From sequence record PZ445524.1: a stretch of DNA of 64,000 nucleotides; one strand, 5' to 3'. Every line of letters starts with the position of its first letter. Position 1 is the stretch's first letter. The position numbers were made by a program, and so were the translations under genes. Shown in pieces: positions 8,011 to 62,313 of the stretch. The notes beneath the pieces were generated by a model, which saw nothing but the letters and a program-made list of their open reading frames with translations, made no database searches and was not told the DNA's origin. The DNA is from a phage.

Positions 8011-8025
8011 TCTTTGACGATTTAA

Positions 8026-8054
8026 GGGACCTTCGGGTCCCTTTAGTTGTTTTT
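8026..8054 (+). terminator. intrinsic terminator after gene 23 (GGGACC-TTCG-GGTCCC plus T-tract)
   Basis: perfect 6-bp GC stem with UUCG tetraloop followed by TTTAGTTGTTTTT. Confidence 0.85.
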
Positions 8055-8058
8055 ATGG

Positions 8059-8066
8059 TATAAATA
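8059..8066 (+). promoter_or_regulatory. late promoter TATAAATA upstream of gene 24
   Basis: exact TATAAATA about 28 nt before ATG 8094. Confidence 0.7.
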
Positions 8067-8093
8067 AATCATATAAACCAAAAGGAAAGCGCA

Positions 8094-13120: not shown

Positions 13121-13149
13121 TAGATATATTTATTACATGGTATTTAGAC

Positions 13150-14661
13150 ATGACTGACATTAAAGTACATTTTTATGATTTTAGTCACGTGAGAATTGAT
13201 TGTGAAGAAAGTACATTTCATGAACTCCGTGATTTCTTTAGCTTTGAAGCTGATGGGTATCGTTTTAATCCGAAATACAGATATGGCAACTGGGATGGAC
13301 GAATCCGTCTTTTAGATTATAATCGTCTTCTTCCATTCGGCTTAGTCGGGCAAATTAAAAAGTTCTGTGATAACTTTGGCTATAAAGCCTGGATTGACCC
13401 ACAAATTAACGAAAAAGAAGAATTATCAAGAAAAGATTTTGATGAATGGCTTTCTAAATTAGAAATCTATTCAGGAAATAAAAGAATTGAACCACACTGG
13501 TATCAAAAAGATGCAGTGTTCGAAGGATTAGTTAATCGTCGTAGAATTCTTAATCTTCCAACATCCGCTGGTAAATCGTTAATTCAAGCTTTGCTTGCGC
13601 GATATTATTTGGAAAATTATGAAGGTAAAATTCTTATCATTGTTCCAACAACTGCTTTAACAACTCAGATGGCTGATGACTTCGTTGACTATCGTTTATT
13701 CAGTCATGCAATGATAAAGAAAATTGGCGGCGGAGCATCAAAAGATGATAAATATAAAAATGATGCACCAGTCGTTGTTGGTACATGGCAAACTGTAGTT
13801 AAACAACCAAAAGAATGGTTCTCACAGTTTGGAATGATGATGAATGATGAATGTCATCTTGCTACAGGAAAAAGTATTTCATCCATCATATCAGGTTTAA
13901 ATAACTGCATGTTCAAATTCGGTTTGTCTGGTTCATTACGTGATGGCAAAGCCAATATCATGCAGTATGTTGGAATGTTTGGTGAAATATTTAAGCCAGT
14001 AACGACTTCTAAGTTAATGGAAGATGGACAAGTAACTGAGCTAAAAATTAATAGTATTTTTCTTCGCTATCCCGATGAGTTCACTACTAAATTAAAGGGA
14101 AAAACTTACCAAGAAGAAATAAAAATTATTACTGGGCTCAGTAAAAGAAATAAATGGATCGCTAAATTAGCTATTAAGCTTGCGCAAAAAGATGAAAACG
14201 CTTTTGTCATGTTTAAACATGTATCGCATGGTAAAGCTATTTTCGATTTAATTAAAAATGAATACGATAAAGTTTATTACGTATCAGGGGAAGTTGATAC
14301 CGAAACCCGCAACGTAATGAAAACCTTAGCTGAAAATGGTAAAGGAATAATTATAGTAGCGAGTTATGGTGTATTTTCTACTGGTATTTCAGTTAAAAAT
14401 CTGCATCATGTTGTTTTAGCGCACGGCGTTAAATCAAAAATCATTGTATTACAAACAATCGGTCGTGTATTACGTAAGCATGGTTCTAAAACAGTCGCAA
14501 CAGTCTGGGACCTCATAGATGATTGTGGTGTTAAGCCAAAATCTGCTAATACGAAAAAGAAATATGTTCATTTGAACTATCTTTTAAAACACGGCATTGA
14601 TCGTATTCAGCGCTACGCAGATGAAAAATTTAATTACGTAATGAAAACAGTTAATTTATAA
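13150..14661 (+). CDS. uvsW: UvsW RNA-DNA and DNA-DNA helicase (SF2)
   Basis: 503 aa; Walker A LPTSAGKS and DECH box; T4 UvsW length. Confidence 0.93.
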   Translation: MTDIKVHFYDFSHVRIDCEESTFHELRDFFSFEADGYRFNPKYRYGNWDGRIRLLDYNRLLPFGLVGQIKKFCDNFGYKAWIDPQINEKEELSRKDFDEWLSKLEIYSGNKRIEPHWYQKDAVFEGLVNRRRILNLPTSAGKSLIQALLARYYLENYEGKILIIVPTTALTTQMADDFVDYRLFSHAMIKKIGGGASKDDKYKNDAPVVVGTWQTVVKQPKEWFSQFGMMMNDECHLATGKSISSIISGLNNCMFKFGLSGSLRDGKANIMQYVGMFGEIFKPVTTSKLMEDGQVTELKINSIFLRYPDEFTTKLKGKTYQEEIKIITGLSKRNKWIAKLAIKLAQKDENAFVMFKHVSHGKAIFDLIKNEYDKVYYVSGEVDTETRNVMKTLAENGKGIIIVASYGVFSTGISVKNLHHVVLAHGVKSKIIVLQTIGRVLRKHGSKTVATVWDLIDDCGVKPKSANTKKKYVHLNYLLKHGIDRIQRYADEKFNYVMKTVNL

Positions 14662-38099: not shown

Positions 38100-38602
38100 T
38101 TAAAAGTATTTTTTAAAACTCATCATAACTTTATCATCAACATCATTATCAATCTGTGCAACAAGGTAAGATGACAGTTCTACTTCTTGTGGCGCGGATT
38201 GAACATTATCAGAATTAAGATATTCACGAATCCAAGGATATGGATGTTTAACCGGAGCATCGGTAATTGGGCATGGAAGACCACACTGTTTCATACGAGA
38301 TACAGTTAAGTAATCAATAAAGCTCCACATGCTATTTGTATTTAATCCAGGAACATCGCCATCTTTAAATAAATGAACTGCCCAATCTTTTTCTTGGCGG
38401 TTAACTTCCATGAAAATATCAACTGCTTCTTGTTCACACTCTTGAGCAATTTTAACCCATTCATCGCCATCAGTACCGGATTGAAGTTGACGAATAATAT
38501 ATTGAGTGCCTTTAAGGTGAAGCTGCTCATCACGTGCAATGAACTTCATAATCTTGGCATTACCTTCCATGATTTCCATGTTCTTATGGAAGTTAAAGGT
38601 AC
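38100..38602 (-). CDS. nrdB: ribonucleotide reductase beta subunit NrdB, exon 2
   Basis: splice inferred from protein continuity: exon 1 T plus GT gives Cys, yielding FYVSFA-C-TFNF...MEGNAK, the conserved R2 motif; intron ends in G. Confidence 0.75.
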
Positions 38603-39691
38603 CGTATGTTCGATTGAGCTCGCTAATTCTCAACCCGTTCTCTTATGAACTGCTGCATGTTACCATGCAGTCCAGACTATATCACAATCCCGGAGGGATT
38701 CTCCCCATTTCGAGTCGCTTGACCCTACGTCCGAAGACTAGTCGTTGAACCTTGCTTTGCAATTGTCGCCGTGCCATCGTTTATATGTTGATGGTGATAA
38801 ATCTTTCTTACCACAATATGGACAATTCAATTGAATTCTATTTGGATTTAATTTACATCTGTCATTATGTTTTAGATAAAATCCAGGACCTTTACCAATG
38901 TGACCACAGAAATCACATGTGATTTCTTTTTGTGCAGGATGGGTCCCGTTCTTAACCATTTCTAATGTTTTTGCTGATGTTCTTTTCTTATGGTCTTCTG
39001 ATAAGAAATGATGTGAACCGTCATTTACCCGTTTTGATTGAGTTTCTGACTGCATTTTACCACCGCAAAATACATGAGTACCTTCTTTTATAGCTGCAAT
39101 ATTGCGTTCTTTAACTTTTGCAATATGCTCAGCTTGTTGAAAATTATGTATACCTAATGCAACTCTATTTAAATTAGATTTACGCTGTATTTCACCATCT
39201 AAAAGATGAAATGTACCATTTTCTATCTTAGATTTAATAGAGGCAATATTTTTAGCTCGTACTTCAGGGATATTAAAAATCTGGATTTCTCTAGATTTTG
39301 CGGCTTTAGAAGCTAATTCAGAAATTTCTTCAGGAGAATATTTCATTCTAAGCTTTATAGCATGACAAGCCTGGTAATCTTTTTGAGCTAAATGTATATC
39401 ATAATGTTCCTGTATAGAAAGGCACATCAAATTATCTAAATCATTATTTTCACGGTTACCGTCTTTATGATGGATTTCGTATGTTCTTCCATCAGAATCT
39501 TTAGGTATAGGTCCGTTAGCATCTATCCAAATTTTTCTATAGTTCAATTGTGCATCCTCTTAAAAGTATAATCATATTTATATTATACTAATTAAAGGTG
39601 CAAGCAAAACCTTGGCTGCTAGTTTTCCATAAAGGACTTTCCAGCAATTAAAGGAGTTTTCGATAAACGTTACCGTTTAAAGGCGCATTTT
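38603..39691 (-). mobile_element. group I intron in nrdB (about 1089 nt) carrying the I-TevIII ORF
   Basis: interrupts conserved NrdB motif; 5' exon ends in U; P1-type pairing of exon GCGU with intron GCGC; 3' core resembles the td intron. Confidence 0.8.
38738..39547 (-). CDS. I-TevIII: I-TevIII HNH homing endonuclease, full length
   Basis: 269 aa; HNH motif EIHHKDGNRENNDLDNL...H and C-terminal Cys-rich zinc-finger region; apparent TTG start, exact start uncertain. Confidence 0.85.
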   Translation of the reverse strand: MNYRKIWIDANGPIPKDSDGRTYEIHHKDGNRENNDLDNLMCLSIQEHYDIHLAQKDYQACHAIKLRMKYSPEEISELASKAAKSREIQIFNIPEVRAKNIASIKSKIENGTFHLLDGEIQRKSNLNRVALGIHNFQQAEHIAKVKERNIAAIKEGTHVFCGGKMQSETQSKRVNDGSHHFLSEDHKKRTSAKTLEMVKNGTHPAQKEITCDFCGHIGKGPGFYLKHNDRCKLNPNRIQLNCPYCGKKDLSPSTYKRWHGDNCKARFND

Positions 39692-40367
39692 ACGCAAAAG
39701 ATACATAAAAACGAATAGCTTCCAATGCGTTGATTACATGGAGGCAAAGGTAAAGAGATTTCATTAAAGCACGTTTAGCTTCGGCTTCTTGTTTAATAGC
39801 TCGGTTTAAACGAAAGACGGCATCAGGAGATTCTTTAGCTAGTTCTACAAATTCTTTAGCATTTTCCCATTCACGGGTTTTAATCAGAACATCATCATAA
39901 TAACGCCCAATGGATTCAGCACGTTTCATAATAGCTTCATCTAATACAATCTCATCAAATACCTTCGATGGATCAGTATAAAGATTTCGCATGATATGTG
40001 TATATGAACGGCTGTGAATAGTTTCACTAAAAGTCCACGTAGCAACCCATGTATCAAGACTTGGGTCTGAAATTAATGACATAAGTACAGCAGATGGCGC
40101 ACGACCCTGAATGCTATCCAAAAGTGATTGATACTTCAGGTTGTTAGTAAAAATATTTTGCTGATACTGAGGAAGCTTATTAAACTGTGCAGCATCCATC
40201 ATTAAGTTTACTTCTTCCGGGCGCCAGAAAAATGATAATTGCTTTTCGGTCAAATCTTCAAAAACTTTATGGCGTTGAATGTCATAACGCGCAATACCAA
40301 GACCTGAACCAAAAAACATAGGTTCTTTTAAAACATCAACTGGATTTGTATTAAAAACTGTAGACAT
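39692..40367 (-). CDS. nrdB: ribonucleotide reductase beta subunit NrdB, exon 1
   Basis: 225 codons ending ...EAIRFYVSFA; next in-frame codon is TAA inside the intron. Confidence 0.8.
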
Positions 40368-40401
40368 ATTATTCTCGCTTATTATAGGTTTAAATATTTA
40401 A

Positions 40402-41205
40402 TCACATATTATGTATAAGCACTTCAGTCTGAAATGATGCACCTTTCTTTTGCTTCCTATACATGGTTTCAAAATATTCAATTTTGAAATTATTAGAAAG
40501 GGCCCAATCTTTTAAAATATAATTATTAATATCGTCCGATAGATTATTAGTGATAATAAATTTAGACTTTGACCGTTTAATTTTATCTAATAATTCTAAT
40601 TCATCCTTTTCTTCCCATCCTGAATATTTAAATTTAGTAGAAAGATAAGGCGGGTCAATGAATAAATTTTTGTTTTCAAAATCTAAATCTCTGAATGATT
40701 TATTACTAAATGTAAATCGGTGTTGTCTATTTTTAAATTCAGAAAATTTATCCTGTTGAGACTTATTAAAAGAAGTTCTGGAATACTTGGCTCTGTTGGC
40801 GAAAGCCGCGTTATAGTTCCCATTACTAGAAAATCGGATTAATGAACTGAATGAAAATAAATGTAGAACATAAAGATATAGTCCGTTTTTGGTTTTATCG
40901 TATTCTTTTGACAGATTATAAAAAGGTGCTGAATCTTTGTCATTCAAATTGAAGTCTTCAATAATTTTAACTATATCATTAATTGAAGATGATTTCATCT
41001 TTTTATACATGTCTATAAGAGGAGTATTAATATCATTACATATAACATTTCTTTGACAATTCATAGAAAATCCAAGACCGCCACAAAAAGCATCCAAAAC
41101 GGGCTTATCATCAAAGCAGTTTGAAAATTGTCTAATAAATGGCATATACTTATGCTTTGCACCTGGATATGTTATGGCAGGTAGGTCTTTCATATTATTT
41201 CTCAT
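40402..41205 (-). CDS. Dam-family DNA N6-adenine methyltransferase (diverged paralog)
   Basis: 267 aa; motif I DAFCGGLG, NDINTPLIDMYKKM, motif IV FIDPPY; same motif order as E. coli and T4 Dam. Confidence 0.8.
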   Translation of the reverse strand: MRNNMKDLPAITYPGAKHKYMPFIRQFSNCFDDKPVLDAFCGGLGFSMNCQRNVICNDINTPLIDMYKKMKSSSINDIVKIIEDFNLNDKDSAPFYNLSKEYDKTKNGLYLYVLHLFSFSSLIRFSSNGNYNAAFANRAKYSRTSFNKSQQDKFSEFKNRQHRFTFSNKSFRDLDFENKNLFIDPPYLSTKFKYSGWEEKDELELLDKIKRSKSKFIITNNLSDDINNYILKDWALSNNFKIEYFETMYRKQKKGASFQTEVLIHNM

Positions 41206-41212
41206 TTGTTAG

Positions 41213-41230
41213 TGACTCGTCCGTGAGTCA
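41213..41230 (-). other. hairpin TGACTC-loop-GAGTCA between nrdA and the methyltransferase gene
   Basis: 6-bp inverted repeat just downstream of nrdA stop. Confidence 0.4.
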
Positions 41231-41237
41231 AATTATA

Positions 41238-43502
41238 TCATAATTTACAGGATGAACAATCTTCAGCTTTTGGAGTTTCTATTTCATAATCATCAGTACC
41301 AGAACCATCACGGGTATTATGATAATAGAAATTTTTAATGCCATAATACCATCCGTATAGCATGTCATCAATCATTATTGACATTGGAACCTTTCCCTTT
41401 GGAAAAATCTGCGGGTCATAGTATGTATTCGCTGAAGCTGATTGACATACCCATTTCAGCATAATAGCTACCTGCGTAAGATAAGGTTTATTACCTTTCT
41501 TAGCTAATTTCCATGTATAATCATATAGGTCTATGTTATGCTCAATATTGGGCACGACTTGATTAAAGGAGCCCTCTTTTGATTCTTTAACAGAGACTGG
41601 TCCACGTGGAGGCTCGATGCCGTTTGTACTGTTAGAAACTTGGGAAGATGACTCACATGGCATAAGTGCTGATAATGTGCTATTACGGATGCCAAATAGC
41701 TTAAGGTCTTCCCGCAGCGACGACCAGTCACAAACGTATTTTGGAGCTGCGATTTGGTCAATCTTTTTATTGTACCAGTCGATAGGTAATTCGCCTCGAG
41801 ACCAACGAGTGTCTGAATAATATTCGCAAGGTCCTTTTTCTTTGGCGAGCTTAATGGATGCTTTAATGAGTCCATACTGTAATCTCTCAAATAGTTCATG
41901 TGTTAAATCGTTAGCATCTTCATAAGAAGCAAAGTTACTTGCCAGCCAAGCTGCATAGTTAGTAACACCTACACCAAGGTTACGACGCTTTTTAGCTTTT
42001 TCTGCTTCAGGAACTGGATATCCTTGGTAATCCAACAGATTATCAAGAGCACGAACTTGAACTTCTGCCAATTCATTAATTTTATCTTGGTCTTGCCAGT
42101 CAAAATTATCCAGTACGAAGGCAGAGAGAGTACACAACCCAATTTCAGCATCAGGACTATTCACATCATTTGTTGGAATAGCAATTTCACAGCACAAGTT
42201 ACTCTGACGAATAGGTGCCTTTTCACGAATAAACGGAGTATAGTTATTCGTATTATCAATGAACTGTACATAAATCCTTGCTGTTCCTGAACGTTCAGTC
42301 ATGAGCAATTCAAATAGTTCACGGGCTTTAATACGCTTTTTACGAATATTAGGGTCTTTTTCTGCTGCTTCGTATAATTCACGGAAACGGTCTTGGTCTT
42401 TAAAATAAGAATAATAAAGCTCTCCACCCATTTCATGCGGACTGAACAAAGTAATGTAATCGTTCTTTCCAAAACGTTCCATCATCAAATCATTCAGTTG
42501 AACGCCATAATCCATATGACGAATGCGGTTTTCTTCTACGCCTTTGTTATTTTTCAAAACGAGAAGATTTTCAACTTCCAAATGCCAAATAGGATAATAA
42601 GCAGTAGCAGCGCCGCCACGAATTCCACCCTGTGAGCATGATTTAACTGCAGTCTGAAAATGTTTCCAAAAAGGAATAACACCGGTATGGCGTACTTCAC
42701 CCATGCCAATCTTAGAACCTTCGGCACGAATCATACCAACGTTAATACCAATTCCAGCGCGTTTAGAGATATATTCAACAATTGAAGCGGAAGCCTTATT
42801 GATAGACTTCAGCGAATCACCTGCCTCAATAACAACACATGAACTAAACTGTCGAGTCGGAGTACGACAACCAGCCATAATAGGAGTTGGCAATGAAATC
42901 TGTCGAGTAGATACTGCTTCATAAAAACGAATAACATGTTTTAATCTATCAACAGGTTCATCTTGATGCAATGCCATTCCAATAGTCATAAATGCAAACT
43001 GTGGAGTTTCATAAATTTGACCAGTGGTTTTATCTTTAACTAGATATTTTTCTTTTAATTGCATCGCCCCGGAATAAGTAAATTCCATATCCCGCTCGTG
43101 CTTAATTTTTGATTCTAAAAATGTAATTTCTTCTGCTGAATATTTTGACAATAATTCAGGGTCATATTTACCTTCATTTACACAGTAAGAAATATGGTCA
43201 ATAAATGAACGTGGTTCATACTGCCCATAAACATGCTTACGAAGAGCGAACATTAAACAGCGTGCAGCTACATATTGATAATCAGGTTCTTCAACCGAAA
43301 TAGAATTCGCAGCAGCCTTAATGACAATAGTCTGAATATCATCAGTTGTCATTCCATCACGGAGATAAGATTTAATATTTTCATATAATTCATAAGGATC
43401 TACTGATGTTCCTTCAGCTGCCCAAGATAAAACTTTAATAATTTTTTGTGGGTCAAAGCTCTGAGAAACACCACTACTTTTGATAACATTAATTAATTGC
43501 AT
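41238..43502 (-). CDS. nrdA: ribonucleotide reductase alpha subunit NrdA
   Basis: 754 aa, T4 NrdA length; class Ia RNR large subunit. Confidence 0.95.
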   Translation of the reverse strand: MQLINVIKSSGVSQSFDPQKIIKVLSWAAEGTSVDPYELYENIKSYLRDGMTTDDIQTIVIKAAANSISVEEPDYQYVAARCLMFALRKHVYGQYEPRSFIDHISYCVNEGKYDPELLSKYSAEEITFLESKIKHERDMEFTYSGAMQLKEKYLVKDKTTGQIYETPQFAFMTIGMALHQDEPVDRLKHVIRFYEAVSTRQISLPTPIMAGCRTPTRQFSSCVVIEAGDSLKSINKASASIVEYISKRAGIGINVGMIRAEGSKIGMGEVRHTGVIPFWKHFQTAVKSCSQGGIRGGAATAYYPIWHLEVENLLVLKNNKGVEENRIRHMDYGVQLNDLMMERFGKNDYITLFSPHEMGGELYYSYFKDQDRFRELYEAAEKDPNIRKKRIKARELFELLMTERSGTARIYVQFIDNTNNYTPFIREKAPIRQSNLCCEIAIPTNDVNSPDAEIGLCTLSAFVLDNFDWQDQDKINELAEVQVRALDNLLDYQGYPVPEAEKAKKRRNLGVGVTNYAAWLASNFASYEDANDLTHELFERLQYGLIKASIKLAKEKGPCEYYSDTRWSRGELPIDWYNKKIDQIAAPKYVCDWSSLREDLKLFGIRNSTLSALMPCESSSQVSNSTNGIEPPRGPVSVKESKEGSFNQVVPNIEHNIDLYDYTWKLAKKGNKPYLTQVAIMLKWVCQSASANTYYDPQIFPKGKVPMSIMIDDMLYGWYYGIKNFYYHNTRDGSGTDDYEIETPKAEDCSSCKL

Positions 43503-45932: not shown

Positions 45933-45977
45933 TTAGTACCTTATATAAATTATAATACATTTTATGAAGCTAAATAA

Positions 45978-46325
45978 TCAATACGGTTTAGCATCAAATT
46001 TTCTCTCAATTTCAGGTGTGAAATATAATTCTTTACCACGTTTGGAAAAGCGACCAATAATATGATAATTATTCTCATCAAACGTGATATTACCAATATC
46101 CATAGCTTTCAACCAAATATCGATATTTCTATCCAGCTTTATGTCAAAATTCCAATACGGAGAACTATTACCGAAAATACTGCAAGCGGATTCAGTGAAA
46201 CAACTGCTATAAATCTTGTCTTTAGGAACTACTAATTGATAGACACCTTTAATAAACTGAGGACCTTGCCATTTTGGCTGTTTCGCGTCTTTTTCTAATA
46301 GAATAGGGTAATAATTAAAATTCAT
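45978..46325 (-). CDS. hypothetical protein inserted between frd and td
   Basis: 115 aa from ATG 46325 (track starts at GTG 46337); no recognisable motif. Confidence 0.6.
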   Translation of the reverse strand: MNFNYYPILLEKDAKQPKWQGPQFIKGVYQLVVPKDKIYSSCFTESACSIFGNSSPYWNFDIKLDRNIDIWLKAMDIGNITFDENNYHIIGRFSKRGKELYFTPEIERKFDAKPY

Positions 46326-46345
46326 ATTTTCAGCCACGCGTTATT

Positions 46346-49478: not shown

Positions 49479-49545
49479 TTTTATTTCCTTTTTAATTTAA
49501 TTAACAGTTGGTGCTATGACGATGTATGACCTCATAGCTGGTCAG
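49479..49545 (-). promoter_or_regulatory. gene 32 translational operator (5' pseudoknot-forming segment plus A/U-rich gp32-binding leader)
   Basis: leader reads ...GCUAUGAGGUCAUACAUCGUCAUAGCACCAACUGUUAAUUAAAUUAAAAAGGAAAUAAAAAUG, matching the remembered T4 gene 32 autoregulatory site. Confidence 0.75.
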
Positions 49546-49561
49546 TGAGATAATTATAATC

Positions 49562-49569
49562 TATTTATA
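49562..49569 (-). promoter_or_regulatory. late promoter TATAAATA upstream of gene 32
   Basis: minus strand TATAAATA about 85 nt upstream of the gene 32 ATG. Confidence 0.6.
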
Positions 49570-49577
49570 ATAAGCAA

Positions 49578-57573: not shown

Positions 57574-60500
57574 ATGGCTACTTTAAAACAAATACAATTT
57601 AAAAGAAGCAAAACCGCAGGTGCACGTCCTGCTGCTTCAGTATTAGCCGAAGGTGAATTGGCTATAAACTTAAAAGATAGAACACTTTTTACTAAAGATG
57701 ATTCAGGAAATATCATTGATTTAAGCATTTCCGCTGGCGGTAATATCAGTGGAAATATCACTCAAACTGGTGATTATACACAGACTGGAAAATTTAATTT
57801 AATTGGTCCGCAAATTGTAGCAAGCGGTGGATATATTGAGTTTAATTATCGTACTACTGGAAGTGGGGCTTGGTCCGGTCAACATACTGCGAAAGCTCCA
57901 ATTTTTGTAGATTTAAGCTCAGCTACTTCCACATCTGAATATAATCCTATAATTAAACAGCGCTTTAAAGATGGAACTTTTTCTGTTGGTACGTTAGTAA
58001 ATGAAGGAAGTTTTAAGATTCATTATATCAATGAAACTGGGGATTCGAAATATTGGACTTTTAATCGTAATGGTAATTTCCAAGTTGTCACGGGCGATTT
58101 ATTTGTCAGCAACGGTAATATTTCCGCTTCAGGCAATATTAACTCGGCAACTGGATTTGTTTCTGCACCGCAGATTAATACAAAAACCATAGTTTTTGAT
58201 ACAAAAGCATTCGGACAATACGATTCGCAGTCATTAGTTCAATATGTTTATCCTGGAACCGGTGAAACAAACGGAATCAATTACCTTCGTAAAGTTCGAG
58301 CTAAATCAGGCGGAACCATTTACCATGAAATCGCTTCTGCGCAGACCGGTAAGAATGATGAAATTTCTTGGTGGACCGGAAATACACTTACTACTAAATT
58401 AATGGGTCTTCGTAATGATGGCGCAATGGTATTACGTCGTTCACTTGCTATTGGCACAATTACCACCGATGAAAATACTAACAACTATGGTTCTCCTACT
58501 CCAATGGGAGAAAGATATATTGCTTTGGGCGATGCTGCCACTGGTTTAAAATACATTAAGCAGGGTGTTTATGATTTAGTAGGTAATTGGAATTCTGTTG
58601 CTTCTATTACTCCTGATAGTTTCCGTAGTACTCGTAAAGCATTATTTGGACGTTCCGAGGACCAAGGCGGAACGTGGATTATGCCTGGAACGAACGCTGC
58701 TCTCTTGTCTGTTCAAACCCAGGCAGATGTGAATAACGCAGGTGATGGTCAAACCCACATTGGATATAATTCTGGCGGTAAAATGTCCCACTATTTCCGC
58801 GGTAAAGGCCAAACTAATATTAATACTCAAGAAGGCATGGAAGTTAACCCTGGTATTTTGAAATTGGTAACTGGCTCTAATAACGTACAGTTTTATGCCG
58901 ACGGAACAGTATCTTCAATACAAAGAATTAAATTTGATAACGGATTAGTTCTTACTGGTGCTAGACCCGACGGTATTCAACTTGACGCTCCTACAACAAC
59001 AGATGGCACTAAAACTATATTGTGGGCCGGCGGTACTCGCCCAGGTCAGAATAAAAGTTATCTATCTATCAAAGCATGGGGTAATGCCTTTAATGCATCT
59101 GGCGATCGTGCTCGTGAAACGGTTTTTGAGGTAGGTGATGGACAAGGTTACCATTTTTATTCTCAACGAGTTGCTCCCGGATCAGGTTCTACCGTCGGAC
59201 CTATTCAATTTCGAGTTAATGGTGGTTTATTAACTGCAGGTAGTATTGTTGCTTCTGGTTCTATTACAACTGAATCTTCTTTGAGTGTTAATAATGGCAT
59301 GTCAGTAATCGGTGAATTAAAGGTTGGTGGTACCGCAGATAACTTCCGTATTTGGAACGCTAAATACGGCGCTATTTTCCGTCGTTCAGAAGATTCCTTG
59401 TATATAATTCCTACAGCCATTAACCAAGGCGAAAGCGGTGGAATAAGCGATATAAGACCGTTCAGTATTAACCTTGGCACTGGCTCTGTTGCAATGGGTA
59501 ACCATACTCAAGCGGGTAAAAACCTTTTCACGGTTGATAACGTTTCTAAATTAGTACAAACTGATGTTCGTTTCCGTGTTAACATGGATTCCGACGGTAT
59601 TGTTTTGAATGCTTCTTCTCAAGCAGCGTCTAACTTTATCCAAGGACGTAAAGCAGATGCTCCGAAATGGTATCTCGGTATTGGCGACGGTGGTAACGTT
59701 GTTCGTTTACATAACTATACCTATTCCCACGGTATTGCATTAAACTCTGATACTGTAGATATTACTAAGCCTCTTAAAATTAATAATATTCGAATTGGTA
59801 CAGATGGCAACATCACAGGTGGTACTGATAATTTTGCCAATTTAAATACAACGTTAAACAATAAAGTCAATGTTGGTGGTTGGTCAGGCGGAGCTACAAC
59901 TGGGTGGTATAAGTTTGCGACAGTTAATATTCCTCAATCTACTGGAACAGTATCATTTAAAATATATGGTGGTTCAGGATTTAATTTTAAAAGTTATGGG
60001 CAAGCTTCTGTCGCAGAAATAATTCTTAGAACTGGAAATAATAATCCTAAAGGACTTAACGCTACATTATGGAACAGAACTTCTGAAGCATTTTCACAAA
60101 TTGCTACAGTTAACACAAGCAATGATACATATGACGTTTATGTTTATGTGGGAGGATATTCAAATGCTTTAGTCGTCGAATATTCATGTACCAGTAATAG
60201 TACAGTAACTGTGGTTGGTGTTAATGGAGGAATTCAACCTATTGTTGAAACACTTCCAGAAGGTCATGTAGTAGGTAAAACTGTAAAATTATTGAATAAC
60301 ATTGATGGAATGTTTTCAGCTGGTGAATCTGATATTATTACTCGCGGTGAATTTGTTACCAATAACCAAAAAGGTTTACGCATTAAATCTAGAGGCAACG
60401 ATATTGATTCTAATGCTGTTATTATTCGAAATGATGGTGGAAGTTTTTATATTCTAGCTACAGATAAGAATACATCATCAAATCCTGATGCTGCATCAGG

Positions 60501-61467
60501 TAATTGGAATAATTTAAGACCTTTCTCCATTAATATGGCTGATGGTCGCGTTGGTATGAACCATGGTCTAAATATTACCGGCGGTGGCTTGAATGTTACT
60601 GGTGGCTTGAATGTTACTAGTGGTAATACTAGTTTAGGTAATATCTCGTCTCGTGTAGTAGCAGGTTGGCGAGGAGCGTCTGGTTGGGCTGATAACTCGG
60701 ATACAATGAAATCTAAAATCACCTTTATGGCAGACCATGGGGATTTATCTAATTCAGGCAGTTATTATCCTATTGTAGGTGCATACAGCAACTATGGTTC
60801 AGCGGGTTATCGTCAAACCTTTGAATTTGGATGGGTCGGCTCTGGTACCACCGCTGGATGGCGAGAAGGTATTATTCGTATTCGCGGAGATAGTTCTAGC
60901 GGCCAGCAAGCAAGATGGCGATTTACAATGGATGGTATTTTAGATTGCCCGGGTAAAGTACAGATGCCACAAACAAGTGCATTTGGTGTCAATACAACAA
61001 ACGCACTTGGTGGAAACAGTATAACATTTGGTGATAGCGATACTGGTATTAAGCAAAATGGCGATGGATTATTAGACATATATGCGAACAACGTACAAGT
61101 ATTCCGTTTCCAAAACGGTGATTTGTACTCATACAAAAATATAAATGCTCCAAACGTTTATATTCGTTCTGATATTCGTTTAAAATCCAACTTTAAGCCT
61201 ATCGAAAATGCACTTGATAAAGTTGAAAAACTTAACGGTGTCATTTACGATAAAGCTGAATACATCGGTGGAGAGGCAATTGAAACTGAAGCAGGTATTG
61301 TGGCTCAAACGTTACAAGACGTTTTACCAGAAGCTGTCCGTGAAACAGAAGATAGCAAGGGTAATAAAATACTCACTGTTTCTTCTCAAGCCCAGATTGC
61401 TCTTCTAGTTGAAGCTGTGAAAACACTTTCTTCTCGTGTAAAAGAACTTGAATCTAAACTTATGTAA
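57574..61467 (+). CDS. 37: long tail fiber distal subunit gp37 with C-terminal intramolecular chaperone domain (T2-type)
   Basis: 1297 aa; shares FEVGDxxxYHFYSQR block with gp34; last about 100 aa (SDIRLKSNFKPIE...VKELESKLM) resemble the self-cleaving chaperone domain of endosialidase/T5 fiber type. Confidence 0.9.
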   Translation: MATLKQIQFKRSKTAGARPAASVLAEGELAINLKDRTLFTKDDSGNIIDLSISAGGNISGNITQTGDYTQTGKFNLIGPQIVASGGYIEFNYRTTGSGAWSGQHTAKAPIFVDLSSATSTSEYNPIIKQRFKDGTFSVGTLVNEGSFKIHYINETGDSKYWTFNRNGNFQVVTGDLFVSNGNISASGNINSATGFVSAPQINTKTIVFDTKAFGQYDSQSLVQYVYPGTGETNGINYLRKVRAKSGGTIYHEIASAQTGKNDEISWWTGNTLTTKLMGLRNDGAMVLRRSLAIGTITTDENTNNYGSPTPMGERYIALGDAATGLKYIKQGVYDLVGNWNSVASITPDSFRSTRKALFGRSEDQGGTWIMPGTNAALLSVQTQADVNNAGDGQTHIGYNSGGKMSHYFRGKGQTNINTQEGMEVNPGILKLVTGSNNVQFYADGTVSSIQRIKFDNGLVLTGARPDGIQLDAPTTTDGTKTILWAGGTRPGQNKSYLSIKAWGNAFNASGDRARETVFEVGDGQGYHFYSQRVAPGSGSTVGPIQFRVNGGLLTAGSIVASGSITTESSLSVNNGMSVIGELKVGGTADNFRIWNAKYGAIFRRSEDSLYIIPTAINQGESGGISDIRPFSINLGTGSVAMGNHTQAGKNLFTVDNVSKLVQTDVRFRVNMDSDGIVLNASSQAASNFIQGRKADAPKWYLGIGDGGNVVRLHNYTYSHGIALNSDTVDITKPLKINNIRIGTDGNITGGTDNFANLNTTLNNKVNVGGWSGGATTGWYKFATVNIPQSTGTVSFKIYGGSGFNFKSYGQASVAEIILRTGNNNPKGLNATLWNRTSEAFSQIATVNTSNDTYDVYVYVGGYSNALVVEYSCTSNSTVTVVGVNGGIQPIVETLPEGHVVGKTVKLLNNIDGMFSAGESDIITRGEFVTNNQKGLRIKSRGNDIDSNAVIIRNDGGSFYILATDKNTSSNPDAASGNWNNLRPFSINMADGRVGMNHGLNITGGGLNVTGGLNVTSGNTSLGNISSRVVAGWRGASGWADNSDTMKSKITFMADHGDLSNSGSYYPIVGAYSNYGSAGYRQTFEFGWVGSGTTAGWREGIIRIRGDSSSGQQARWRFTMDGILDCPGKVQMPQTSAFGVNTTNALGGNSITFGDSDTGIKQNGDGLLDIYANNVQVFRFQNGDLYSYKNINAPNVYIRSDIRLKSNFKPIENALDKVEKLNGVIYDKAEYIGGEAIETEAGIVAQTLQDVLPEAVRETEDSKGNKILTVSSQAQIALLVEAVKTLSSRVKELESKLM

Positions 61468-61469
61468 AA

Positions 61470-61497
61470 GAGGGCTTCGGCCCTCTAAGGATTTTTA
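61470..61497 (+). terminator. hairpin GAGGGC-TTCG-GCCCTC after gene 37
   Basis: perfect 6-bp GC stem with UUCG loop; modest T-run; gene 38 ATG follows. Confidence 0.55.
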
Positions 61498-62283
61498 ATG
61501 GCAATTGTAGGTGTTCCTGGCTGGATTGGTGAATCTGCCGTGAATGAAACTGGACAACGTTGGATGGATGCTGCGATGAAAGCTGTTCGTGTTTCAGTTC
61601 CCGGCTGGATGAGCTCAATGGCTGGGCAATCTAAAGAAGTATATTATAGCGTTGGTGCTAGTAATTCTTATAATAAAGACACACTAATAAATTGGATAAA
61701 AGCCCAAGGTAGTACTCCTGTTGTTATTACAATTACAGGAAATATTGTTTCTCAATCTACAGGTGTTCCATGCTTAGATTTTCCTAGCTCATTAACTAAT
61801 GCATACGTGACACTTAATATCAATTCAGGCGTGTATGTTTGGGGTCGCGGCGGTAATGGTGGAAATAACTCTGCTGGTGGAGCAGGAGGAACTGCAATAA
61901 ATAACGGAATTGGAACTAGATTACGTATTAACAACAATGGTGTTATCGCAGGCGGTGGCGGCGGTGGCGGTGGTGGGTATTATTCTCCTATGTCACAAAT
62001 GAAATTAACCTTTGGCGGTGGCGGCGGTCGTCCGTTTGGTGCTGCTGGTGGATCTGCCAACATGCAATCAGGCGCAACTGCTGGTACTATTTCCGCGCCA
62101 GGTAAAGGGTCTGTCAACGGTGTCTATAATGGCGGAAACGGCGGTGATGCTGGTGCCGCAGGTGGTAAATGTAATATTCGTGGTCAAGGATCAGAATATA
62201 ACGGCGGTGCTGCGGGTAAAGCTGTTACTGGTAATGCTCCAACTTGGACTAAAGTTGGTACAATATACGGTTCAAGAGTATAA
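61498..62283 (+). CDS. 38: gp38 receptor-recognising adhesin with glycine-rich motifs (T2/K3-type, not the T4 183-aa chaperone type)
   Basis: 261 aa; conserved N-terminus then poly-Gly motifs (GGGGGGGGG, GGGGG) separated by variable segments. Confidence 0.88.
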   Translation: MAIVGVPGWIGESAVNETGQRWMDAAMKAVRVSVPGWMSSMAGQSKEVYYSVGASNSYNKDTLINWIKAQGSTPVVITITGNIVSQSTGVPCLDFPSSLTNAYVTLNINSGVYVWGRGGNGGNNSAGGAGGTAINNGIGTRLRINNNGVIAGGGGGGGGGYYSPMSQMKLTFGGGGGRPFGAAGGSANMQSGATAGTISAPGKGSVNGVYNGGNGGDAGAAGGKCNIRGQGSEYNGGAAGKAVTGNAPTWTKVGTIYGSRV

Positions 62284-62313
62284 TTTGAATAAATATCCTT
62301 AAAAGGAGGGTCT

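Follow-up and report, generated by a model that had tools for sequence, protein, structure and literature searches.

A diverged Dam-family adenine methyltransferase gene in the nrdA-nrdB slot of T4-like phages

In phage T4, the slot between nrdA and nrdB holds nrdB.1 and mobE, which encodes an HNH homing endonuclease, while dam lies at 16.8 to 17.6 kb between genes 56 and 61. The phage DNA analyzed here (64,000 nucleotides of record PZ445524.1, hereafter the window) maps onto T4 coordinates 98.5 to 161.9 kb and carries in the same slot an intact 267-aa open reading frame (ORF) at 40402..41205 on the minus strand. The initial annotation, made from the sequence alone, described the T4 layout correctly and proposed that the ORF encodes a diverged Dam-family adenine methyltransferase (MTase), either a second orphan enzyme or a relocated one. 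The locus raises the question of whether this gene is a displaced T4 dam or a separate enzyme, and of what it would methylate. Its upstream neighbor is nrdA (41238..43502, minus strand; 98.4% identical to T4 nrdA), and its downstream neighbor is nrdB (38100..40367, minus strand), with exon 1 at 39690 to 40367, an intron with an intact I-TevIII (38738 to 39547), and exon 2 within an ORF at 38100 to 38633. The slot had been placed between two intron-containing genes; this holds for nrdB, interrupted by the I-TevIII intron, whereas nrdA is intron-free. An Rfam scan for group I introns gave no match at the gathering score, which we take as a limit of the models for ORF-bearing introns and not as a sign that the introns are absent. 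A td intron is located ~3 kb further upstream, beyond nrdA.

Translation of the MTase probably starts at the second ATG (M5, 41191 to 41193) rather than the first, since T4_ev240 has ACG in place of the first ATG and the Klebsiella phage copy lacks it altogether; the alleles are conserved from MKDL onward. The probable coding sequence of this Dam-family (D12 class) N6-adenine DNA methyltransferase thus spans 40402..41193 on the minus strand and encodes 263 aa, within the longest ORF of 267 aa that reaches 41205. The ORF was described as very AT-rich, and its measured GC content is 28.5%, compared with 36 to 38% for the neighboring genes. T4 dam is much the same at 27.7%, so the composition appears typical of phage dam genes, and AT-richness was discarded as a sign of foreign origin.

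The family assignment was supported by several profiles. The protein matched Pfam PF02086 (D12 N6-adenine MTase) with 84.4 bits against a cutoff of 22 (E 1.4e-23) over profile positions 1 to 251 of 253, and PHROG_56, "DNA methyltransferase," with an E value of 1.6e-36. Among solved structures, the best matches were the T4 Dam entries (E 3.5e-37, residues 8 to 256), followed by DpnM and Escherichia coli Dam (EcoDam) at about 1e-5 to 1e-4. A tblastn search of the whole window with T4 Dam returned this ORF as its sole match, and identity to T4 Dam was 33 to 34% by both BLASTP and tblastn, in line with the distant kinship first suggested. The match to NCBIfam TIGR00571 ("Dam family site-specific DNA-(adenine-N6)-methyltransferase") was full-length (E 3.9e-26) and scored 92.3 bits, below the curated cutoff of 114.85; the MTase is a relative of the curated TIGR00571 Dam subfamily, outside it by NCBI's rule. 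Against the EcoDam equivalog model, it reached 30.7 bits versus a cutoff of 441. No HNH family was among the Pfam or PHROG matches, and no similarity to mobE was detected. Since an MTase fold is matched and a mobE-type endonuclease is not, both sequence-level objections named with the initial annotation fall away, and its core reading holds.

An AlphaFold2 model built from a 62-sequence alignment was of high confidence (pLDDT 91.5, pTM 0.89), and Foldseek superposed it on T4 Dam at TM 0.83 to 0.91, on EcoDam at 0.74 to 0.80, and on DpnM at 0.70. The ordered Dam motifs reported for the ORF (PGAKHKY, DAFCGGLG, NDINTPLIDMYKKM, and FIDPPY) are all present in the translation. The order DAFCGGLG, CNDI, IDPPY is that of the D12 class, with columns invariant or at least 90% conserved across 40 to 68 homologues. 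In motif I, DAFCGGLG (AdoMet-binding FxGxG; 41071..41094, minus strand), the residues D, F, G, and G show little or no variation across the 40- and 62-sequence alignments. In motif IV, DPPY (catalytic, adenine-binding; 40645..40656, minus strand), D, P, P, and Y occur in 65 to 68 of 68 aligned homologues. Altogether, the AdoMet-binding and catalytic residues of YxGxK, DxFxGG, ND, and DPPY are all kept, in columns near-invariant across 40 to 68 homologues. Pairwise dN/dS among six MTase alleles was 0.05 to 0.18, with dS of 0.8 to 2 between subtypes; on the basis of these values, the gene appears to be functional and to have been under constraint for a long time.

The MTase gene sits in a compact cassette. 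The footprint without a T4 counterpart by blastn spans 40363..41241, as placed by junction alignments against Pu-Krd-SF4, T4_ev240, BGP, and T4, and it has no blastn match at all to the nrdB.1-mobE insert of T4. In Pu-Krd-SF4 and the other closest backbone relatives, whose slot is empty, the nrdA-nrdB spacer is 51 bp, and the cassette of ~0.83 kb is inserted precisely in this spacer. At the left junction, the window shares the first ~30 bp of the spacer, up to ...GAGTCACTAAC. This stretch includes a small hairpin, TGACTC-N6-GAGTCA, just past the nrdA stop codon (41213..41230, minus strand); it belongs to the backbone spacer, being present in empty-slot Pu-Krd-SF4 as well, and its predicted fold (−7.5 kcal/mol, z −1.5) is not significant. 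The right junction lies before TAATAAGCG and the nrdB ribosome-binding site, and the last ~17 bp of the spacer, from TAAGCG to the nrdB start, are common to the window and the empty-slot phages. Apart from the ORF, the cassette consists of a few bases on the upstream side and ~20 bp on the downstream side. The 34-bp spacer from the MTase stop to the nrdB start (40368..40401, minus strand), which contains the nrdB ribosome-binding region, is kept in all carriers.

We then considered how the gene might be expressed. Neither a T4 late promoter (TATAAATA) nor a MotA box was found within the cassette or just upstream of it, including the gap between nrdA and the MTase gene. Sigma-70-like matches numbered 31 versus 19 expected from shuffling, a modest excess; one 11/12 match lies inside the MTase ORF and is not conserved between the two subtypes described below. 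Two terminator-like sites were detected, neither of them near the MTase gene, and none flanks the cassette. The simplest reading of this absence of promoter motifs is that the MTase would be expressed from a transcript running from nrdA, its presumed source, to nrdB.

Homologues at 77% identity or more were present in nine phage records across three genera. Five Tequatroviruses (ECO07P2, NR1, T4_ev240, 236Ecol005PP, and EP02SG) encode proteins 97 to 99% identical to the MTase, and four phages, BGP (Tequatrovirus), CF-SP2 (Gelderlandvirus), fDHCT2, and PhiKpNIH-6 (Marfavirus), encode proteins 77 to 80% identical. The gene is always immediately 3' of nrdA in the carriers. It fills the nrdA-nrdB slot in 8 of about 700 records matching the region; the ninth carrier record, PhiKpNIH-6, begins within the gene, which there too follows nrdA directly. 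By contrast, mobE of the T4 type (at least 90% identity) is present in ~21 records and a band of mobE-like genes at 60 to 80% identity in ~112, and the slot is empty in most relatives. A 99%-identical protein in the same gene order was also found on at least nine metagenome-assembled T4-like contigs. The nearest allele (P0001) occurs only on contigs with an intron-less nrdB, which indicates that it comes from a phage other than that of the window. Exact look-ups of the 267-aa and 263-aa proteins, like a 32-mer scan of viral contigs, returned no match.

The alleles fall into two subtypes by their target-recognition hairpin, which reads ...FSSLIRFS...NAAF (or NASF) in the window's subtype and ...FSSMLKFS...IASF in the other (subtype B). 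Compared with the BGP copy, the MTase gene is 97% identical at its 3' end, with identity falling to 73% at the 5' end, inside BGP flanks, intron, and I-TevIII that are 97 to 100% identical to the window. This mosaic identity within near-identical flanks indicates that homologous exchange has occurred repeatedly, both through the cassette and inside it.

To place the MTase relative to T4 dam, we combined database scans with a rough NJ tree of 68 sequences and 60 bootstraps. A HMMER scan of 1.84 billion cluster representatives returned only the MTase's own cluster below 1e-30; the next match, a T4-Dam-like protein, was 35% identical to the MTase and 52% identical to T4 Dam. No relatives between 40% and 77% identity were found in phage records or among the 1.84 billion representatives. 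The nrd-slot proteins were monophyletic in 60/60 bootstraps, on a long branch, and T4 Dam was their sister in none of the 60; in some bootstraps, that place was taken by the Dam of Alcaligenes phage Afa-NA1 (40% identity). By the two marks of a T4 dam orthologue, synteny between genes 56 and 61 and a sister position to T4 Dam, the MTase fails on both counts. The nrd-slot MTase thus represents a Dam-family lineage separate from canonical T4 dam.

In seven carriers, the nrd-slot MTase is the single Dam-like place per genome. In T4_ev240, for example, genes 56 and 61 are separated by only ~270 bp, and a T4 Dam query of its genome retrieved nothing besides the nrd-slot MTase. BGP has both genes at two separate loci, its canonical dam (259 aa) lying between 61 and 56. 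A 2026 paper on the Durham phages reports that NR1 is without a T4-like Dam gene and that BGP, Geo, and EL have one (PMC13390438). In the checked carrier genomes, BGP excepted, the nrd-slot MTase stands in place of canonical dam, which is itself optional, being found at 90% identity or more in ~182 records. Pu-Krd-SF4, the best overall match to the nrd part of the window, is without it. The window combines a BGP-like nrd backbone with an MTase subtype otherwise found only in dam-less genomes; its 56-61 locus lies beyond the window.

These data bear on the proposal that the MTase gene is a recently relocated T4 dam, or a decaying, nonfunctional remnant of one. Such an origin would fit the 56-61 locus of the carriers, which usually is without dam, and the rank of T4 Dam as the top-scoring solved structure. 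Nonetheless, many noncarriers, such as Pu-Krd-SF4, also are without canonical dam, and the flanking nrd genes are 95 to 99% identical to those of T4 and its relatives, versus 33 to 34% for the MTase and T4 Dam; this disparity excludes a recent transposition, and the sister relationship that relocation implies was never recovered in the tree. Decay is excluded by the strong purifying selection and the intact motifs. We regard relocation or decay as scarcely credible, and of the two options first offered for the gene, a relocated T4 dam is set aside; the MTase may be either a second or the sole Dam of its phage.

We next examined the residues that would determine the target site. In EcoDam, the main discriminator is R124, through its contact with the Gua of the fourth base pair, whereas Y119 is the intercalating residue (PMC4417163). 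L122 and P134 touch the inner base pair, N120 forms a hydrogen bond to a base, and the first base pair is contacted by K9 and Y138, an interaction that the family does not conserve; discrimination is altered when single contact residues are replaced, as in R124A (PMC4417163). EcoDam R124, Y119, L122, P134, N120, K9, and Y138 align with R116, F111, M114, P126, S112, K11, and R130 of T4 Dam and, in that order, with R124, F119, L122, A134, S120, K17, and R138 of the MTase. Five of the seven base-contact residues of T4 Dam are thus kept (K17, F119, S120, R124, and R138, corresponding to K11, F111, S112, R116, and R130), and L122 is the residue of EcoDam. The target-recognition beta-hairpin, F119 to R138 in the 267-aa numbering (40792..40851, minus strand), was delimited by mapping its columns to T4 Dam F111, S112, M114, R116, P126, and R130, and it is followed by a clade-specific loop extension, AKYSRT. 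This 6-aa insertion was considered as a unique feature and rejected, because loop length there varies across the family.

The remaining differences from T4 Dam are A134 in place of P126 (P134 in EcoDam), where subtype B has Ser, and a Ser at N118. The P126 column among 68 homologues contains P in 28, S in 15, and A in 13, and it varies also in T4-Dam-like proteins such as P0005 (52% identity to T4 Dam); loss of the Pro is thus not diagnostic of specificity. The relaxed-specificity dam-h mutation of T4 is presumably P126S. On these alignments, we predict, with rather more confidence than doubt, that the MTase targets GATC or a near variant. Subtype B, with Lys at the position of the Gua-contacting Arg and Ser at the Pro position, appears to be a better candidate for altered specificity than the window's subtype. 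For two carrier phages, the modifications reported in the literature are cytosine only (PMC13390438).

An active enzyme with a different or relaxed target compared to T4 Dam (GAxC, GAT, or another short site) would extend protection beyond the systems covered by GATC methylation, and it would explain why BGP keeps both genes, a coexistence that speaks against the two being fully redundant, at least where subtype B is concerned. The substitutions at the P126/P134-equivalent and N118 positions, the loop extension, the Lys of subtype B, the score below the TIGR00571 cutoff (92.3 versus 114.85), and the finding that first-base-pair contacts are unconserved and that R124A shifts discrimination (PMC4417163) are all consistent with such a change. 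However, the window's subtype matches T4 Dam at five of seven contacts and EcoDam at a sixth, the P126 column varies among T4-Dam-like homologues, P0005 included, and the confinement of this subtype to genomes without canonical dam fits functional equivalence. A different target is therefore possible, but we consider it unlikely. The MTase could also be the protective half of a phage nuclease/methylase pair, or it could guard against a homing endonuclease or a restriction-like enzyme that the phage encodes at another locus. In favor of this view, the slot is the homing-endonuclease locus (mobE) of T4, an intact I-TevIII lies ~0.9 kb away, and BGP has a restriction-enzyme-like ORF with a weak DpnII match (E 0.0045, below cutoff; see also PMC13390438). 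Yet that ORF is beside canonical dam, and would be the partner of that gene and not of the nrd-slot MTase. Moreover, nrdA and nrdB adjoin the MTase directly in the window and in every carrier, so that no restriction endonuclease gene is adjacent and the cassette is without a nuclease gene, and in most carriers nrdB lacks an intron and mobE is absent, which leaves no consistent nuclease partner. Such a pairing seems improbable. The initial suggestions that an extra methyltransferase could widen anti-restriction protection or mark DNA for an unknown partner are speculative.

Hia5, Hin1523, and Nma1821, in turn, are sequence-nonspecific adenine MTases that would give blanket protection against restriction. 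They resemble the MTase in being Dam-related, phage- or prophage-borne orphans with DPPY and FxGxG, presumably of anti-restriction function, and in replacing another anti-restriction gene at a fixed slot; their recognition region, however, is highly divergent (PMC3299994). The recognition region of the MTase aligns residue by residue with that of T4 Dam, with contacts kept, and the model superposes on T4 Dam at the TM values given above. This T4-Dam-like recognition domain argues against an enzyme of the Hia5 type, which we hold to be very improbable.

Taken together, we consider it likely that the MTase is an active orphan D12 alpha-class enzyme of a distinct lineage, carried in a promoter-less nrd cassette that confers an anti-restriction benefit and spreads through its flanks. 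Under this model, the MTase would most likely be translated off the early/middle transcript from nrdA to nrdB and would therefore be produced while phage DNA replicates. Its substrate would be phage DNA and its target a short site with an adenine, of which GATC or a close variant is the most probable, and the methylation would protect against restriction sensitive to adenine methylation, the usual accessory gain of phage Dam enzymes. The cassette would spread among T4-like phages by homologous recombination via the conserved nrdA and nrdB flanks, and this spread may be aided by double-strand breaks from mobE and I-TevIII, the homing endonucleases that use the locus. A bolder combination, in which the specificity of nrd-slot Dam differs from GATC, at least for the Lys/Ser-hairpin subtype of BGP, and the anti-restriction cassette crosses genera as passive cargo of mobE/I-TevIII homing breaks, strikes us as doubtful.

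Compared to known systems, the MTase is closest to T4 Dam (M.EcoT4Dam; PDB 1Q0S, 1YF3, 1YFJ, and 1YFL), with which it shares the fold, the domain order, the motifs, and a near-equal length, as well as an orphan status in T4-like phages and an AT-rich, non-core gene of patchy occurrence. It differs in its locus, its separate clade, and the residues described above (Ala at P126, Ser at N118, Leu at M114, and six residues after R130). EcoDam (PDB 2G1P and 4RTJ, among others) and DpnM (2DPM) share the D12 fold, the hairpin Arg, the intercalating aromatic residue, and the N-terminal Lys, but their identity to the MTase in structural alignment is only 16 to 18%, at TM 0.70 to 0.80. T4 mobE/nrdB.1 occupies the identical slot directly after the nrdA stop and is similarly optional and patchy; unlike the MTase cassette, which has no nuclease, mobE is an HNH homing endonuclease gene that promotes its own spread. 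The MTase is thus of the same functional kind as T4 Dam, an orphan phage Dam-family enzyme; the point is comparative, and the mechanism is not new. In the literature searched, we found no description of the separate lineage, of a cross-genus, promoter-less nrdA-nrdB cassette, or of a replacement of canonical dam.

These comparisons suggest that T4-like coliphages exchange Dam methylation as an accessory trait and draw it from at least two gene lineages, unrelated to each other and located at different loci; many T4-like phages have neither dam lineage, and few have both. For a T4-like phage in therapeutic use, this bears on predicting which restriction systems and which methylation-dependent defenses, DpnI-like or otherwise 6mA-sensing, it will face. 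It is also relevant to annotation: GenBank and JGI label near-identical proteins "DNA adenine methylase" or "Dam" and at times hypothetical, and pipelines name the MTase gene "dam," "hypothetical protein," or "FokI methylase."

The window encodes a full-length I-TevIII of 269 aa within the nrdB intron (38738 to 39547, minus strand), whereas the copy in T4 is truncated and defective. On the T4 map, positions 38999 to 39474, which lie inside the I-TevIII region, have no T4 counterpart. Besides the window, only Escherichia phage vB_Eco_BGP combines the nrdB intron with the methyltransferase cassette, the Dam-family adenine methyltransferase gene in the nrdA-nrdB slot; in all other carriers examined, nrdB is intron-less. 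A search of the whole 64-kb window against Rfam at gathering thresholds returned zero RNA families, including no match to a group I intron model for either the td or the nrdB intron, both of which are apparent from the interrupted open reading frames (ORFs).

Phage vB_Eco_BGP is also the single phage with both Dam genes, the nrd-slot methyltransferase and a canonical dam of the T4 type. Directly before this canonical dam, and overlapping it, is a 186-aa ORF (OZ035849.1, 33403 to 33963), which gave a weak, subthreshold match to the DpnII restriction endonuclease family PF04556 (E value of 0.0045; 16.8 bits, with a cutoff of 23). DpnII is a restriction endonuclease that cuts GATC. The 186-aa ORF and canonical dam may constitute a phage-borne GATC pair resembling a restriction-modification system.

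Within the methyltransferase ORF of the window, a σ70-like promoter sequence matching at 11 of 12 positions (ATGACA-17-TATAAT; 40915 to 40943, minus strand) is directed toward nrdB. The protein segment encoded at this site differs in the subtype B alleles, those of the vB_Eco_BGP and CF-SP2 kind; thus, its resemblance to a promoter is probably coincidental in such AT-rich DNA.

Across the whole 64-kb window, GATC is strongly depleted, with 65 sites observed against 218 ± 13 expected from dinucleotide-preserving shuffles of the window. T4 carries segD, segE, and segG as free-standing homing endonuclease genes; on the T4 map, all three are absent from this phage at their T4 positions (window positions ~8021 to 8082, ~13136 to 13156, and ~49541 to 49577). 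Between td and frd lies a 119-aa ORF (45978 to 46337, minus strand) that has no T4 counterpart (T4-map gap, 45936 to 46340), and a similar small gene annotated as "phage protein" occupies the same interval in T4_ev240 and vB_Eco_BGP. The distal tail-fiber region, the usual variable region for host range, comprises the gene 37 C terminus and gene 38 (57724 to 58196 and 59169 to 62288), and its nucleotide similarity to T4 is either none or ~74%.
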